DNA of 26,724 nt from a virus. Positions 1-26,724 of the stretch are shown here, piece by piece. The DNA lies in the IMG/VR virus record IMGVR_UViG_3300048909_000182; one strand, 5' to 3'. A program made the position numbers and the translations under genes. Positions within the stretch are counted from its first letter, which is position 1, and each line of letters begins with the position of its first letter. Below the pieces are notes generated by a model. It was not told the origin of the DNA. It worked only from the letters and a program-made list of their open reading frames with translations, and did not search any database.

Positions 1-127
1 TGCGTCCCGTTTCGATCTCGAACCCAGGACACGGATACGCCGCCGCGTATGCGGCCAGCGCGCTTTCCAGTTCCCGCACCCGAGCTTCGAGAAGCTCAGT
101 CTCGTGCCTAGAACTGGGGTTCGAGGC
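1..127. repeat. terminal direct repeat, copy 1 (identical to 26598..26724); circular-closure overlap
   Basis: Read base by base: 1-127 equals 26598-26724 (127/127). An ORF cut by the window edge becomes a clean 204-nt ORF only when the ends are joined. Confidence 0.95.
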
Positions 128-1405: not shown

Positions 1406-1440
1406 CTCTAATCTCCGATCCCGCGAGCACCATGTGTAGG

Positions 1441-1478
1441 CGCAAACGCCGGTGTGCTCGCATCACCCGGCGTTTGCG
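1441..1478. terminator. perfect 12-bp inverted repeat hairpin (CGCAAACGCCGG-14 nt-CCGGCGTTTGCG), putative factor-independent terminator/insulator between attP and the early operon
   Basis: Arms 1441-1452 and 1467-1478 are exact reverse complements. It sits in the non-coding gap between the integrase end and the ParB-like start. There is no U-tract (common in actinobacteria). Confidence 0.45.
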
Positions 1479-1529
1479 CTAAAAGCCTGCGATTAGCAGG
1501 GTTTTCTGACTTTGCGGCTTTATGCCTGA

Positions 1530-1557
1530 AACAGCGGTTCGAATCCGCTAGGCGCCT
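1530..1557 (+). other. tRNA 3'-end fragment; putative attP core
   Basis: 1533-1557 = AGCGG TTCGAAT CCGCT AGGCGCC T, i.e. T-stem, canonical T-loop, T-stem, 7-nt acceptor 3' strand, discriminator. Upstream sequence does not fold into an anticodon arm. It lies about 60 bp from the integrase stop in an AT-richer gap. Confidence 0.6.
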
Positions 1558-1619
1558 CTTTTCGCTCAACGAAGCGGGCTGCAGCGAACGCCTATATGCC
1601 GGTTTTAACATTCGCGTTT

Positions 1620-3014: not shown

Positions 3015-3191
3015 TGGCCACCGTCTTTCTGTTCAGCCCGCAGGAGGGGTTTTACCGTCGCAGGCGGGTCTGTGGCAAGGCCACTGTGTGCTATTTGCGG
3101 GGTTCGGATTGATACGCAAAACCCCCGCGTAGCAACGCAGTAGCAAGTTGGTGCAGTAGGCTGTGGGTGAGCGTCGCGGAGACAATCGCCC
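3015..3191. promoter_or_regulatory. divergent intergenic switch region between the two XRE-type HTH genes
   Basis: 177-bp gap between divergently oriented regulators. It contains three GTAG-core direct repeats (GTAGCAA at 3129 and 3140, GTAGGCT at 3156), a TAGGCT -10-like hexamer (3157-3162), GGAGA 9 nt before the TTG start at 3192, and a GC hairpin GCGGGG..CCCCGC (3097-3128). Promoter and operator assignment is not resolved. Confidence 0.4.
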
Positions 3192-3687
3192 TTGTCTAAG
3201 AACACCCACACACTGACGCTCGCCGAACGCATCGACACCCTGATCGACGATCCCGAGGTCAACCCCGAACAGGTTGGTCAGCGGCTCCGACTCGCCCGCC
3301 GCCGCGCCGGGTTCAGCCAGCAAGAACTCGCAGACGCGCTCAACGTCGGCCGCCGCACGATCTACGAATGGGAAATCGGCGAACGGATCCCGAAGAAACA
3401 CCTGACCCGCATCTCCCAGGGTGCTGGCGGTCTCGCGGGCCAGGCTACTCACCGGCCGCGACGACTACTACGCCGAGCTGAGCGAGCTTCGCGAGATGCT
3501 GGCCAAATCCGAAGCCGAACTGGCCGAGCTGCGCCGACAGGTCAGGCTAATGAACGAAAGGAACGCTGATCTTGCGGAAGCCGTCGAATCGGGCTTTGGG
3601 GCTCTTCGTCAACTGGTCGAGGAACGGGTCGCAAGGCGAGAAGAGACGCGGTCGCGGCTCGGATCGCGTCCGCGTGCTCCCGAATAG
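3192..3687 (+). pseudogene. XRE-type HTH regulator with C-terminal coiled coil (CI/Cro-like), split by a 1-nt insertion at the GGG run 3419-3421
   Basis: Frame A (3192 onward) gives RLRLARRRAGFSQQELADALNVGRRTIYEWEIGERIPKKHLTRISQ, then a low-GC3 tail. The frame from 3421 gives VLAVSRARLLTGRDDYYAELSELREMLAKSEAELAELRRQV..., which completes the last HTH-domain helix and has high GC3. That frame is closed by TGA at 3403-3405, so the switch lies between 3406 and 3421. Deleting one G gives ...HLTRISQVLAVSRARLLTG. Confidence 0.7.
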
Positions 3688-3803
3688 CCTCGGTTGACTC
3701 AAAGAGTCGAAGCGTGGCGGCGTCTAACGGCATCGTGGCCTGCACGCCTGAAGTTAACAGATGGTATGCGAGGGGTCGCAAGGAACCGGTTGGGTGTCCG
3801 TCC

Positions 3804-3809
3804 TAGGGT
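3804..3809 (+). promoter_or_regulatory. -10-like hexamer TAGGGT placed 6 nt upstream of the GTG start at 3816 (possible leaderless transcript)
   Basis: Fits the TANNNT pattern. It has the same -10 / 6 nt / start-codon geometry as the RHH gene at 26067. There is no Shine-Dalgarno sequence between hexamer and start. Confidence 0.3.
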
Positions 3810-3815
3810 TCGAAC

Positions 3816-4052
3816 GTGGAAGGGAGAGGCAAGCAGCCGTCCGAGCGGACGATCGCCCGGCTGCGCCGTCTACTCGAGCAGAAGCAGCGGGCGGAGACCA
3901 GAACCGCCGAGGCAACCGACGCGTTGGCCCGCGCCGCCCGTGACGCCTGCGACAAAGAGGGCGCCTCCCGAGCCCAGATCGCGCAAGCCCTGGGGGTTGG
4001 CACGTCAACTGTCCAGGGCTGGGTGCAACGCGGCCGCCAGCTCGACAACTGA
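3816..4052 (+). CDS. small DNA-binding protein with C-terminal HTH (regulator or excisionase-like)
   Basis: 78-aa ORF, GTG start. C-terminus ASRAQIAQALGVGTSTVQGWVQRGR is a typical HTH; the N-terminal half is charged and helical. Confidence 0.6.
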   Translation: MEGRGKQPSERTIARLRRLLEQKQRAETRTAEATDALARAARDACDKEGASRAQIAQALGVGTSTVQGWVQRGRQLDN

Positions 4053-4061
4053 CGAATAGGG

Positions 4062-4103
4062 TCGGCCCGGCGCCGTACTTGGGACGCACGGCAGCCGGGC
4101 CGA
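4062..4103. terminator. long GC-rich hairpin (10 + 5 bp stem, 1-nt bulge, 11-nt loop) after the 3816..4052 gene
   Basis: TCGGCCCGGC GCCGT (4062-4076) pairs with ACGGC a GCCGGGCCGA (4088-4103). It starts 10 nt after the stop codon. Confidence 0.55.
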
Positions 4104-4193
4104 GACCGCCACCCTACACAGCCAGCGTCCCGGGCAGATTCCCCCGTTTGGGTCAGGTAAACCGACGGCGGTGCCGGTACCTTCGCCCGTGAA

Positions 4194-4212
4194 CCGCCCC
4201 GTATCGGGGCGG
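4194..4212. promoter_or_regulatory. perfect 8-bp stem / 3-nt loop hairpin (CCGCCCCG tat CGGGGCGG) just upstream of the RBS of the secreted-protein gene
   Basis: Exact inverted repeat. It ends 12 nt before the AAGGAG Shine-Dalgarno sequence that precedes ATG 4237. Confidence 0.4.
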
Positions 4213-4236
4213 GAACTTGGGACAAAGGAGAACGAA

Positions 4237-4641
4237 ATGAAACTGCGGCTACTGTCGGCCCTCGCCGTCCTGATAGGGGTGTTCGCGAGTTCGGCCAGCG
4301 CAGCGCCGGCACCAAAGCCTCTTGAAGCGTGGGCAAAAATCCGGGCTGTCTGGACGGCCCAGGCACACGCCCGCAACCAGACAATCGTCTGCAACACAGT
4401 GCGTGCTTTGAATGCGGAAGGCGATGGATACAACTATCGCCTTGACTGTTCGATCGTGGTGAAGGACCAAGAGGATCTGCGAGCGTTGGTCAGCGGGGAA
4501 TTCACTCTGCCAGCGTGGGGCAAGTGCAAGTACTACGTCACGCTTACCTACCGGGATCGACCTCAAGCACCTGCGGTGGGTACGGCTCTTGACGTGTGTA
4601 AGCCTGGTTGGCTCAAGAGGGTGCCTCAGCTGGTCGGCTAG
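4237..4641 (+). CDS. secreted small protein with Sec-type signal peptide and four cysteines (prophage moron candidate)
   Basis: ATG at 4237 preceded by AAGGAG. MKLRLLSALAVLIGVFASSASA|APAP is an n-h-c signal peptide with an ASA cleavage motif and no lipobox Cys. The mature part has 4 Cys. Sequence is visibly less G+C-rich than its neighbours. Confidence 0.7.
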   Translation: MKLRLLSALAVLIGVFASSASAAPAPKPLEAWAKIRAVWTAQAHARNQTIVCNTVRALNAEGDGYNYRLDCSIVVKDQEDLRALVSGEFTLPAWGKCKYYVTLTYRDRPQAPAVGTALDVCKPGWLKRVPQLVG

Positions 4642-25621: not shown

Positions 25622-25941
25622 TCGCCGCCCTCGACCTCGGCGATGACTTCGACGGTGACACGGATCGACTGGCCTTCGAACTGTTCGAGGAAATCGCTGA
25701 GCGACCGCCCCGCCGGATGTAGCGTCAGGTCGGTTTCGCTGCCGTAGTGGCGGACGGTGAGCAGTCCCTCAAGCCGATTACTGGGGTTCGAGGCTGAAGG
25801 GGGTTTCGGCTCGTCGACCTTGACGCCGATCGCGGGGTTGCCGCCGGACTTCCAGCAGTCGGCGCACTCGTTGAACCACGGGTCGCGACACTGCGGGTAG
25901 CAGTACCGCCGTTTACTGGGGTTCGAGGCCGACAGGCTCAC
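25618..25941 (-). CDS. hypothetical 107-aa protein carrying two copies of the SASNPS-encoding element
   Basis: GTG at 25941 overlaps the upstream stop. MSLSASNPSKRRYCYPQCRDPWFNECADCW... (Cys-rich module), then PPSASNPSNRLEGLL... (second module). Confidence 0.6.
   Translation of the reverse strand: MSLSASNPSKRRYCYPQCRDPWFNECADCWKSGGNPAIGVKVDEPKPPSASNPSNRLEGLLTVRHYGSETDLTLHPAGRSLSDFLEQFEGQSIRVTVEVIAEVEGGE
25780..25794 (+). repeat. 15-nt iterated element, copy D (internal to the 107-aa ORF)
   Basis: Exact ACTGGGGTTCGAGGC; encodes ASNPS in frame. Confidence 0.9.
25915..25929 (+). repeat. 15-nt iterated element, copy C (codons 5-9 of the 107-aa ORF)
   Basis: Exact ACTGGGGTTCGAGGC followed by CGACAGGCTCAC (start codon GTG). 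Confidence 0.9.
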
Positions 25942-26498
25942 TCGCCCTCCCGTAGTGCGCTCAGAAGGTCAGCGATCTCCGCGAGGCGCGGCCAGTTCTT
26001 CGATGTCGCGTGAAAGCGCAGATAACTCTCGGCGAGGCGCATGTCACGGTGTGATACAATGTGCTCATGGCTAAGACAACGAAGGTTCCGGTCGGCGTCC
26101 TCATCGCTGAGCGCGACGCCGCGGTAAGCGTTCGGATGCCCGGACTGATCAGGGAACGTATGGAAGAGCAAGCGGCGCAAGAAGGCCGCAGCCTGTCGAG
26201 CATGGTTACGTTCGCGCTTTACCAGTGGTTGAACGAGCGCGGCTGAGTTGCCGACCACCGTCCACCAGGGTTCCCCGAGGACGTAGACGCGGACGATCTC
26301 GTCGCGCGTGTGGTTCGCCAGATGCCGTTCGAGCTTCGCCGTCGCAACCTTCATCGCGTCGGCTATCGGCCCGTCGAACTCCGCGCCGCAGATTCGGCAG
26401 CGACGAGCGACCGCTCGCGACGGCTTGCACGTCCGGCATGGACAGTCGGGGTTGTGCGACTGCGGTAGAACCTGTTTGAGGTCGTAGCCAGCCATCAC
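25938..26498 (-). CDS. hypothetical 186-aa ORF (N-terminal Cys-cluster module); its middle third is antisense to the RHH gene
   Basis: GTG-ATG start overlapping the mini-ORF stop. CPCRTC...CRIC cluster. By hand count, GC3 is about 82% in codons 1-84 and falls to about 63% over the 60 codons opposite the RHH gene. No in-frame stop occurs until 25938. Confidence 0.5.
   Translation of the reverse strand: MMAGYDLKQVLPQSHNPDCPCRTCKPSRAVARRCRICGAEFDGPIADAMKVATAKLERHLANHTRDEIVRVYVLGEPWWTVVGNSAALVQPLVKRERNHARQAAAFLRRLLFHTFPDQSGHPNAYRGVALSDEDADRNLRCLSHEHIVSHRDMRLAESYLRFHATSKNWPRLAEIADLLSALREGE
26052..26060 (+). promoter_or_regulatory. extended -10 promoter element TGaTACAAT, 6 nt upstream of ATG 26067 (leaderless-type)
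   Basis: TG at 26052-26053 and TACAAT at 26055-26060, with no Shine-Dalgarno sequence before the ATG. The surrounding 60 bp are about 53% G+C by hand count, well below the neighbours. Confidence 0.5.
26067..26246 (+). CDS. ribbon-helix-helix (CopG/Arc/MetJ-type) DNA-binding protein, 59 aa, nested antisense in the early operon
   Basis: MAKTTKVPVGVLIAERDAAVSVRMPGLIRERMEEQAAQEGRSLSSMVTFALYQWLNERG = beta-strand (VSVRMP), helix A (GLIRERMEEQAAQEG), RS-turn, helix B (LSSMVTFALYQWL). It has its own promoter-like element. GC3 is 44/60 by hand count. Confidence 0.65.
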   Translation: MAKTTKVPVGVLIAERDAAVSVRMPGLIRERMEEQAAQEGRSLSSMVTFALYQWLNERG

Positions 26499-26539
26499 GT
26501 CTTCGGCCTATAACTGGGGTTCGAGGCTGGCAGGCTCAT
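26495..26539 (-). CDS. 14-codon mini-ORF MSLPASNPSYRPKT carrying copy B of the iterated element
   Basis: The ATG overlaps the upstream stop (ATGA) and its TGA overlaps the downstream GTG (GTGA). Whether it is translated is unknown. Confidence 0.35.
   Translation of the reverse strand: MSLPASNPSYRPKT
26513..26527 (+). repeat. 15-nt iterated element, copy B
   Basis: Exact ACTGGGGTTCGAGGC followed by TGGCAGGCTCAT (start codon ATG). Confidence 0.9.
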
Positions 26540-26724
26540 CTCAGCGCCCTTGCGGCACACGTCGGGCAATCACCACCGACGCCGGAGCAACCAGACGTGC
26601 GTCCCGTTTCGATCTCGAACCCAGGACACGGATACGCCGCCGCGTATGCGGCCAGCGCGCTTTCCAGTTCCCGCACCCGAGCTTCGAGAAGCTCAGTCTC
26701 GTGCCTAGAACTGGGGTTCGAGGC
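26536..26724 (-). CDS. same junction-spanning hypothetical gene, 3' part as seen at the right window edge (lacks the first 5 codons)
   Basis: In-frame continuation of the ORF above. The stop TGA at 26538-26536 overlaps the ATG of the next mini-ORF (ATGA). Confidence 0.6.
   Translation of the reverse strand, partial: ASNPSSRHETELLEARVRELESALAAYAAAYPCPGFEIETGRTSGCSGVGGDCPTCAARALR
26598..26724. repeat. terminal direct repeat, copy 2 (identical to 1..127)
   Basis: Same comparison as copy 1. Unique genome length is therefore 26,597 bp. Confidence 0.95.

Follow-up and report, generated by a model that had tools for sequence, protein, structure and literature searches.

A predicted ribbon-helix-helix gene nested antisense in a chimeric open reading frame of a probable actinobacterial temperate phage

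Related systems and the nested regulator gene

The small ribbon-helix-helix (RHH) regulators of phages and plasmids, such as CopG, Arc, Mnt and the omega/ParG-type proteins of the MetJ/Arc clan, share a common fold, size and strand-helix-GxS turn-helix layout. A protein with these same characteristics is predicted to be encoded in the IMG/VR virus record IMGVR_UViG_3300048909_000182, a circular contig of 26,724 nucleotides (nt), which was analysed at its full length and is referred to here as the window. The predicted gene, coding for 59 amino acids (aa), is located on the plus strand (26067..26246; ATG at 26067, TGA at 26246) and lies wholly within, and in codon antiphase to, an open reading frame (ORF) of 186 aa on the minus strand (25938..26498). 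Like other small RHH regulators it is a solitary small gene in what is probably a temperate phage; unlike these, its product carries an N-terminal tail of 19 residues, no antirepressor, toxin or ParA partner was found nearby, and the whole of its coding sequence falls within an open frame of the other strand. It likewise differs from the type II toxin-antitoxin systems with an RHH antitoxin, in that no co-oriented toxin was found beside the RHH gene. Morons, the reverse-oriented accessory genes expressed from the prophages of temperate actinobacteriophages, are normally situated between genes. The RHH gene resembles these in being short, apparently self-promoted, directed against the surrounding operon and placed in a variable region, some 2 kb away from the phage attachment site (attP), but it is located inside an open frame and encodes a regulator with no obvious defence or conversion function (no PADLOC match).

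A closer parallel for the nested position can be found in the ShiLan-type in-frame insertions in the methylases of mycobacteriophages, which contain a hidden gene (PMC11855218). In both cases a foreign gene occupies an actinobacteriophage ORF which remains open across it, and the hidden gene lacks a ribosome binding site and a leaderless start is invoked (PMC11855218). Here, however, the hidden gene is antisense, in codon antiphase, and apparently under the control of its own promoter, and encodes a regulator rather than a homing endonuclease. Furthermore, no uninterrupted host gene was found, the relatives of the enclosing frame ending at the junction instead, and the spread of the locus is explained by short recombination cores which also move neighbouring cassettes without an RHH gene. 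Antisense embedded overlapping genes have also been reported in E. coli and Pseudomonas (e.g. PMC9927249, PMC8850804), where, as here, a complete ORF is nested antisense in a longer one in G+C-rich DNA in which shadow ORFs are frequent. While the embedded ORF is the novel member of the pair in those cases, here the embedded gene belongs to an old, recognisable family and the enclosing frame is the orphan. The protein is of an ordinary kind, and the locus is of interest as a curiosity, without amounting to a new type of system.

We suggest, with a probability of roughly 0.6, that a self-promoted RHH module has been joined in antisense between gene fragments and that the minus-strand frame running across it is a read-through passenger. 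The module, comprising the promoter and gene (~200 nt), sits backwards in a 621-nt cassette that related phages exchange through recombination at 15-nt cores. The enclosing ORF consists of a Cys-rich early protein (~84 aa), the antisense of the RHH gene and the last ~40 codons of an unrelated gene. Its frame would stay open as the antiphase of G+C-rich genes rarely contains stops, and may also persist because its GTGA termination keeps the coupling to the next gene and/or delivers a conserved C-terminal piece.

The translated product of the plus-strand ORF comprises the N-terminal tail, a β-strand (VSVRMP), helix A, a GRSLS turn and helix B. This layout had been recognized in an earlier note made from the sequence, which proposed a comparison against profiles of the RHH families, and it is borne out by that comparison. 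The protein matches the Pfam family RHH_5 (PF07878; Bitscore: 29.0, curated cut-off 26; e-value: 8.9e-7), as well as nine PHROG families (best e-value: 3.9e-8) annotated as Arc-like, as 'partition protein ATPase' or as of unknown function. Weak matches were also obtained in NCBIfam to the YlcI/YnfO, RelB-like and TprA models, all of which are RHH models, with the RelB-like model reaching only 15 bits against a cut-off of 50. The Arc family model (PF03869) falls just below its own cut-off (18.9 versus 20.4 bits), while the sole sequence match in the PDB is a weak one to Mnt (e-value: 1.4). The single-sequence monomer model produced with AlphaFold2 (AF2) contains a strand at residues 20-23 and helices at residues 26-39 and 43-58, with a core pLDDT of 75-89, and the tight G-x-S/T/N turn is represented in the translation by G-R-S-L-S at residues 41-45. 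Foldseek comparison of this model with the PDB gave PutA-RHH, ORF56, CopG, Arc, AmrZ, ParG and the N-domains of antitoxins as top matches; nearly all of the matches listed are RHH proteins, with a few exceptions such as AcrIF25 and MatP. The best match (2rbf_A) has a probability of 0.97, a TM-score of 0.76 and an rmsd of 1.4 Å, its weak e-value (0.2) being expected for about 43 residues. Viral matches in Foldseek comprise CopG-like proteins, including those of Rhodococcus, Mycobacterium and Gordonia phages. By comparison, five other antisense ORFs in the vicinity yielded no Pfam match at an e-value of 0.1 or below.

The best relative of the RHH protein shares 41% amino acid identity over 39 aa, no close relative was observed in a database of 5.8 billion clusters, and the gene is left uncalled in ~25 public contigs. 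The profile and fold matches indicate that the ORF at 26067..26246 is a genuine RHH protein-encoding gene, its product being a distant new member of the family. It provides a clean example of a real gene missed by annotation since a longer 'shadow' ORF on the opposite strand is called instead.

An extended -10 element (TGaTACAAT; 26052..26060, plus strand) precedes this gene, with the TG at 26052-53 and TACAAT at 26055-60. Counted from the A of the start codon at 26067, the element ends with its T at -7 and has its TG at -15/-14, and no Shine-Dalgarno sequence can be read upstream of the start codon. This arrangement, 6 nt from the ATG and of the leaderless type, was reproduced as the earlier note had described it. 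The motif TGNTAYAAT occurs as a single copy in both strands of the genome, where 0.075 copies are expected on the basis of dinucleotide shuffles, while the looser motif TGNTANNNT is present in 2 copies compared to an expected 5.8. The joint chance of a unique TGNTAYAAT at the exact leaderless distance from the RHH start codon amounts to roughly 1e-5 to 1e-6. A scan for promoters with two hexamers (-35 and -10) identified none, in keeping with an extended -10 that has no accompanying -35. The promoter lies in a patch of low G+C content, previously put at about 53% and found on recounting to be 48-59%. In mycobacterial transcription-start maps (Cortes 2013 and Shell 2015, both cited in PMC11855218), such spacing between the -10 and the ATG is reportedly the standard leaderless geometry, and transcription of the RHH gene is predicted to start at the A of the ATG at 26067, giving a leaderless mRNA.

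The genome contains just one further extended -10-like motif (TGTTAACTT; 3743-3759, minus strand), which is followed after 5 nt by a GTG (3745-3743) in frame with an ORF at 3542..3781. This GTG could be where a further leaderless small gene (~67 aa) begins, lying inside the repressor block in antisense. Its translated product has no Pfam match.

Coding in the overlap and make-up of the enclosing frame

The minus-strand ORF overlaps its neighbours at both sides through GTGA/TGATG junctions, as would be the case for translational coupling at both ends, and the RHH gene is contained completely within it in exact antiphase; both of these earlier observations hold. Public contigs have this ORF called as 138 or 185 aa. 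When its 186-aa product was searched exhaustively with HMMER against 1.84 billion representative proteins, homologues were identified for two stretches only, residues 24-84 and 142-179, and the ORF can be subdivided into three segments, here termed A, B and C.

Segment A (residues 1-84; 26247..26498, minus strand), delimited by HMMER, GC content at third codon positions (GC3) and codon score, consists of a Cys-rich N-terminus and a conserved HTR..IVRVYVLGEPWW domain. Residues 24-84 share 55-70% amino acid identity with three small stand-alone proteins, P0004, P0006 and P0007. The first (66 aa) has the C-terminus WWTVTS*, the second (82 aa) runs 19 residues beyond the WW motif, and the third (37/95 aa), which is truly a 95-aa ORF on a 25.9-kb phage contig, ends in WWKVGREA* and is coupled directly to an unrelated gene. 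All four relatives of segment A stop 2-19 residues past the shared WW/WY motif, and three of the four do so at the equivalents of residues 84-86, at or within a codon of the 3′ end of the RHH gene, the stop codon of which is the complement of TCA, Ser85 of the minus-strand ORF. Residues 1-24 of the segment match the N-terminus of a separate 63-aa ORF in contig L018. In that contig the equivalent of residues 1-84 (787-1175) comprises two coupled ORFs, of 63 aa (starting MAGYD..HNPDCPCRSC) and 66 aa, suggesting that segment A is itself a deletion-fusion of two genes.

Segment B (residues 85-144; 26067..26246, minus strand) corresponds, on the basis of codon score, AF2 and database searches, to a minus-frame read-through of the RHH gene, and no homologue of residues 85-141 could be identified in either the 5.8 billion clusters or the 1.84 billion representatives. 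Segment C (residues 142-186; 25938..26075, minus strand) carries the RHH promoter on its opposite strand. Its residues 142-179 share 61% identity over 38 aa with the C-terminus of protein P0008 (pairwise e-value: 3e-14), a singleton and the sole homologue of this segment. This is an unrelated protein of 110 aa with a different N-terminus, and there is no antisense RHH gene at its locus. The gene coding for P0008 (contig L017, 313-645) forms an island of 58-71% G+C in a contig of otherwise 36-50% G+C, and was probably acquired horizontally, unless the contig is itself chimeric.

No protein joining A to C without B was found, the relatives of A ending at the junction and the relative of C having a different N-terminus. 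On sequence comparison the 186-aa ORF is thus best described as a chimera of at least three unrelated pieces, rather than one interrupted gene. The proposal that an RHH cassette had been inserted into an early gene is therefore favoured as regards a cassette in an open frame, but not as regards a single interrupted gene. The ORF shows that a G+C-rich frame can be assembled from unrelated pieces and yet appear gene-like.

The GC3 values of the earlier note were exact on recounting, at 69/84 (82%) for codons 1-84, 38/60 for the minus frame over the overlap and 44/60 for the RHH frame. Scored with a codon log-likelihood model that had the long genes of this phage as its training set, the RHH frame reached +9.3 bits between 26067 and 26246 and the minus frame +0.7. 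The order is reversed in segment A, where the minus frame scored +16.6 bits versus -3.5, while in segment C it was the best of the six frames but still negative. In the AF2 model of the 186-aa protein the pLDDT is 57-74 in A, 37-52 (mostly below 50) for residues 83-147 and 66-70 in C, with an alignment that has no depth in B. The observation that the minus frame contains no stop across the overlap is correct, but it carries no weight, as the antiphase antisense frame of the real genes of this genome is free of stops in 60% of 60-codon windows. This frame is usually open because stops are created there only by the rare codons TTA, CTA and TCA, which make up 0.9% of codons. The absence of stops was therefore rejected as evidence for coding, an open antiphase frame being the default in this genome. 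Within the 180-nt overlap, the RHH frame is the only one to show signs of selection, as judged by these sequence measures.

A silent RHH frame, that is a relic or coincidence with a fortuitous promoter motif and expression of the 186-aa protein only, is very improbable on this evidence. Such a reading can draw on the lack of a call for the gene in any public contig, on its distant best relative, and on the frequency of open antiphase windows, given which a bare ORF means little. However, the RHH_5 match exceeds the curated cut-off and is corroborated by other, independent RHH models and by the fold comparisons, while neighbouring antisense ORFs produced no Pfam matches. In addition, the sole TGNTAYAAT of the genome is placed at the leaderless distance, and codon usage favours the RHH frame.

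Two alternatives had been offered in the earlier note, a genuine antisense overlapping gene pair or an RHH cassette in a frame that happens to stay open. The latter is favoured over the former because the relatives of segment A stop on their own, segment B is without a homologue, codon usage favours the RHH frame and the antiphase is open by default. Several points nevertheless weigh against the passenger interpretation. Mismatches between segment C and P0008 are distributed 11/11/29 over codon positions 1/2/3 of the 38 codons in the minus frame, and the peptide WPRLAEIADL is kept through six synonymous changes. This pattern implies that this piece of segment C evolved as protein-coding sequence in the minus frame. 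The last 38-45 codons of the ORF show purifying selection at the protein level, which would require their translation, and the only visible route to them leads through B. The chance of A, B and C falling in one frame is ~1/3 x 1/3 x 0.6, or about 0.07, which hints that continuity has been selected. For a stretch of 57 residues with no alignment depth, the features that speak against segment B (no homologues, neutral codon usage, low pLDDT) are weak negatives, and as all copies of the cassette are identical, neither selection on B nor the ratio of non-synonymous to synonymous substitution rates (dN/dS) of the two frames is computable. Furthermore, the promoter is a consensus match, the promoters of the Thermoleophilia being uncharacterised. 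Continuity of the frame may have been selected, either for the sake of a fusion protein or to maintain coupling with the gene that follows, and both strands are probably translated across the 180 nt.

A dual-function pair, in which the 186-aa protein needs residues 85-144 and both frames are selected, would accommodate these points and the intact state of both ORFs, each with sequence-based expression signals (coupling at both ends for the one, its own promoter for the other). We consider it rather unlikely. Both flanks of residues 85-141 have homologues among the 1.84 billion representatives, whereas the residues themselves have none. The termination of every relative of A shortly after WW, in three of them no more than a codon from the junction, likewise argues against it, as do the neutral codon usage and pLDDT of 37-52 in B and the default openness of the antiphase.

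Cassette exchange and the possible role of the regulator

Comparison of contigs delimits an exchangeable cassette of 621 nt from core to core (25915..26535), which contains the RHH gene. The 15-nt core (GCCTCGAACCCCAGT) is found at 25780-25794, 25915-25929, 26513-26527 and 26710-26724 (equivalent to 113-127), the earlier observation that copies of it flank the minus-strand ORF being confirmed for the second and third of these sites. There are six core matches in the window, of which five are exact, representing the four distinct sites, and one has two mismatches, while 0.1 are expected. The copy at the downstream cassette boundary (25915..25929, minus strand), identified by motif scan, reads ASNPS at the start of a 107-aa ORF. 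The copy at 26513-26527 is held in a mini-ORF of 14 codons (MSLPASNPSYRPKT; 26495..26539, minus strand), which links the 67-aa ORF upstream to the 186-aa ORF by means of ATGA and GTGA overlaps. The core forms part of a ~42-nt unit, which is either a mini-ORF coupled between genes or is fused in frame to the starts of ORFs. It is always read as ASNPS and its nucleotides are invariant, including those at third positions.

Inside the ORF the cassette is 100% identical in more than 20 contigs, some of which have other neighbours and an integrase that is only 74% identical. Only two differences were observed in the cassette, at 26528 and 26530, both inside the repeat. Neighbouring cassettes without an RHH gene share 97-100% identity in backbones that are 70-74% identical. 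From contig to contig the core joins different combinations of left and right flank, with crossovers inside the core, and the order of three cassettes varies (2-1-3 versus 1-2-3), with one contig lacking cassette 1. A metagenome scan for the extended core retrieved 16 contigs with many different flanks, of which one only, the L009 contig, contains the RHH cassette. These comparisons indicate that the RHH cassette is an accessory, recently exchanged unit, apparently moved by recombination at the 15-nt cores, and the core unit looks like a recombination joint for cassette shuffling. Shuffling at a short core could make modular exchange in the phages of an uncultured actinobacterial lineage directly testable.

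Two other roles for the core were considered and rejected. It is not a tRNA T-arm or attP-like site, given that its flanks form no T-stem, there is no tRNA in the window and attP lies elsewhere. The RHH protein was discarded as a core binder, as the cores are present in many related contigs that do not contain the RHH cassette.

The full nucleotide identity of the cassette across different backbones is compatible with the strong constraint expected of a dual-function pair, but because the neighbouring cassettes without an RHH gene are equally conserved, it is attributed to recency of transfer rather than dual coding. A selected design is a distinctly doubtful proposition. Under such a design, an RHH module would have invaded a coupled operon in antiphase so that the frame remains unbroken and polarity is avoided, the fusion protein would be functional and the cassette would travel among the phages of Gaiellales. 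Were this the case, the fusion would comprise a Zn-ribbon domain, a linker and conserved C-terminal helices, and the early region of the phage would hold an integron-like array of cassettes joined at a 15-nt core within a 14-codon linker mini-ORF.

With respect to function, the RHH protein would act as a dimer that recognises DNA through its β-ribbon, and would repress a promoter, most simply its own. Its gene would be expressed from the promoter described above, also in the lysogen, while the minus-strand gene string is silent. An imperfect palindrome (TGTCAC-GGT-GTGATA; 26042..26058, plus strand), read from the sequence and unique in the window, overlaps the TG/-10 and is, speculatively, a candidate operator. 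A 14-nt direct repeat (TCTCSGCGAGGCGC; at 25976 and 26027) was rejected as an RHH operator, as both copies represent RLAE codons in segment C, and copies with two mismatches occur elsewhere at chance level. No repeated operator motif is common to the RHH promoter and the switch region. Searches for partners were likewise negative. The immediate neighbour ORFs show no Pfam, PHROG or PADLOC match to an antirepressor, the plus-strand ORFs flanking the RHH gene have no family match at an e-value of 0.1 or below that would point to a toxin or other partner, no partition ATPase was found near the gene, and no defence system was matched by PADLOC, nor any family in Rfam.

In the gene calls made on identical contigs, every gene beyond the repressor block lies on the minus strand, in agreement with the claim that the RHH gene is the only plus-strand gene outside 3192-4641. 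Its head-on orientation to the long minus-strand gene string is real, and the earlier note had taken it to suggest an Arc/Mnt-like immunity or transcription-interference switch, separate from the helix-turn-helix switch at 3015-3191. No significant RNA structure was detected downstream of the RHH gene or in the linker, nor was a convincing plus-strand terminator found after the gene. A transcript lacking a detectable terminator would run antisense into the upstream minus-strand genes, and interference with the early transcript is possible. RHH repressors are combined with antisense RNA in the immI region of phage P22, and in phage lambda the OOP RNA is antisense to cII. By analogy, the locus might be a module that operates at the level of RNA or transcription, through convergent collision or duplex RNA against the early transcript, with the RHH protein as a second, Arc/Mnt-like immunity regulator. 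The head-on geometry and the absence of a terminator, which would let the transcript extend antisense into segment A and beyond, speak for this explanation. It is nonetheless quite improbable, for the locus departs from the P22 Arc/Mnt module in that the Arc model remains under its threshold and no adjacent antirepressor, or other target gene, was identified among the immediate neighbours. There is furthermore no operator shared with the switch region, the 14-nt repeat upstream of the promoter reflecting two RLAE codon runs and not being enriched elsewhere, and the phages can dispense with the cassette, which is missing from related backbones that have the same cores. The interpretation as a self-promoted module within a read-through frame is retained here.

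Phage genome, host and other features

The first 127 nt of the window (1-127) are identical to the last 127 nt (26598-26724), leaving a genome of ~26,597 bp with a G+C content of 66.5%. The terminal duplication is presumably an assembler overlap and the genome circular or circularly permuted; a minus-strand ORF of 67 aa crosses the contig junction. Near-identical contigs with the same string of genes are present in several JGI, ENA and Logan samples. In the identical contigs, the minus strand encodes a Cro-like helix-turn-helix (HTH) protein, a tyrosine integrase, several proteins of unknown function, an SLT-domain protein and replication-type HTH proteins, followed by a terminase, portal, protease, capsid, tail proteins and a CHAP lysin. 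The plus-strand block at ~3192-4641 comprises a CI-like repressor gene and two more genes. No relatives at the DNA level were found among 50,697 deposited phage genomes, and no close relatives were matched in the INPHARED phages, at either DNA or protein level, or in IMG/VR, GTDB genomes and plasmids. The portal protein is closest to those of actinobacteriophages, sharing 41-45% amino acid identity with the portals of Mycobacterium phages, while matches at <60% were also obtained for many Microbacterium phages.

A probable attP is located in the non-coding gap after the integrase gene (~1492-1606, plus strand; core about 1536-1560). This region includes a non-coding block of 85 nt that is identical across backbones in which the integrase is only 74% identical. 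A 25-mer within it (CAGCGGTTCGAATCCGCTAGGCGCC) corresponds to the T-arm and 3′ acceptor of a tRNA and is found without mismatch in 56 genome contigs, almost all of them metagenome-assembled genomes of Thermoleophilia/Gaiellaceae, where it forms the 3′ end of tRNA-Cys(GCA). As the attP core is the tRNA-Cys 3′ end of these genomes, the window probably represents a temperate phage of an uncultured Gaiellales-like actinobacterium. With such a host, the promoters of the phage should be readable by actinobacterial rules, although those of that class are experimentally unstudied.

Just downstream of attP and upstream of a 264-aa gene, there is a perfect 13-bp inverted repeat (GCGCAAACGCCGG ... CCGGCGTTTGCGC; ~1440-1479, minus strand), which may serve to terminate transcription or to insulate the integrase gene from the genes downstream. 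Within the repressor block, the CI-like repressor gene (3192-3569, plus strand) encodes 125 aa in the window, while contig L001, which is otherwise identical, has one C fewer at ~3420 and reads through to a product of 164 aa with a match to Phage_CI_repr. Either the immunity repressor is polymorphic for a single-base indel at ~3420 or the difference stems from an assembly error.

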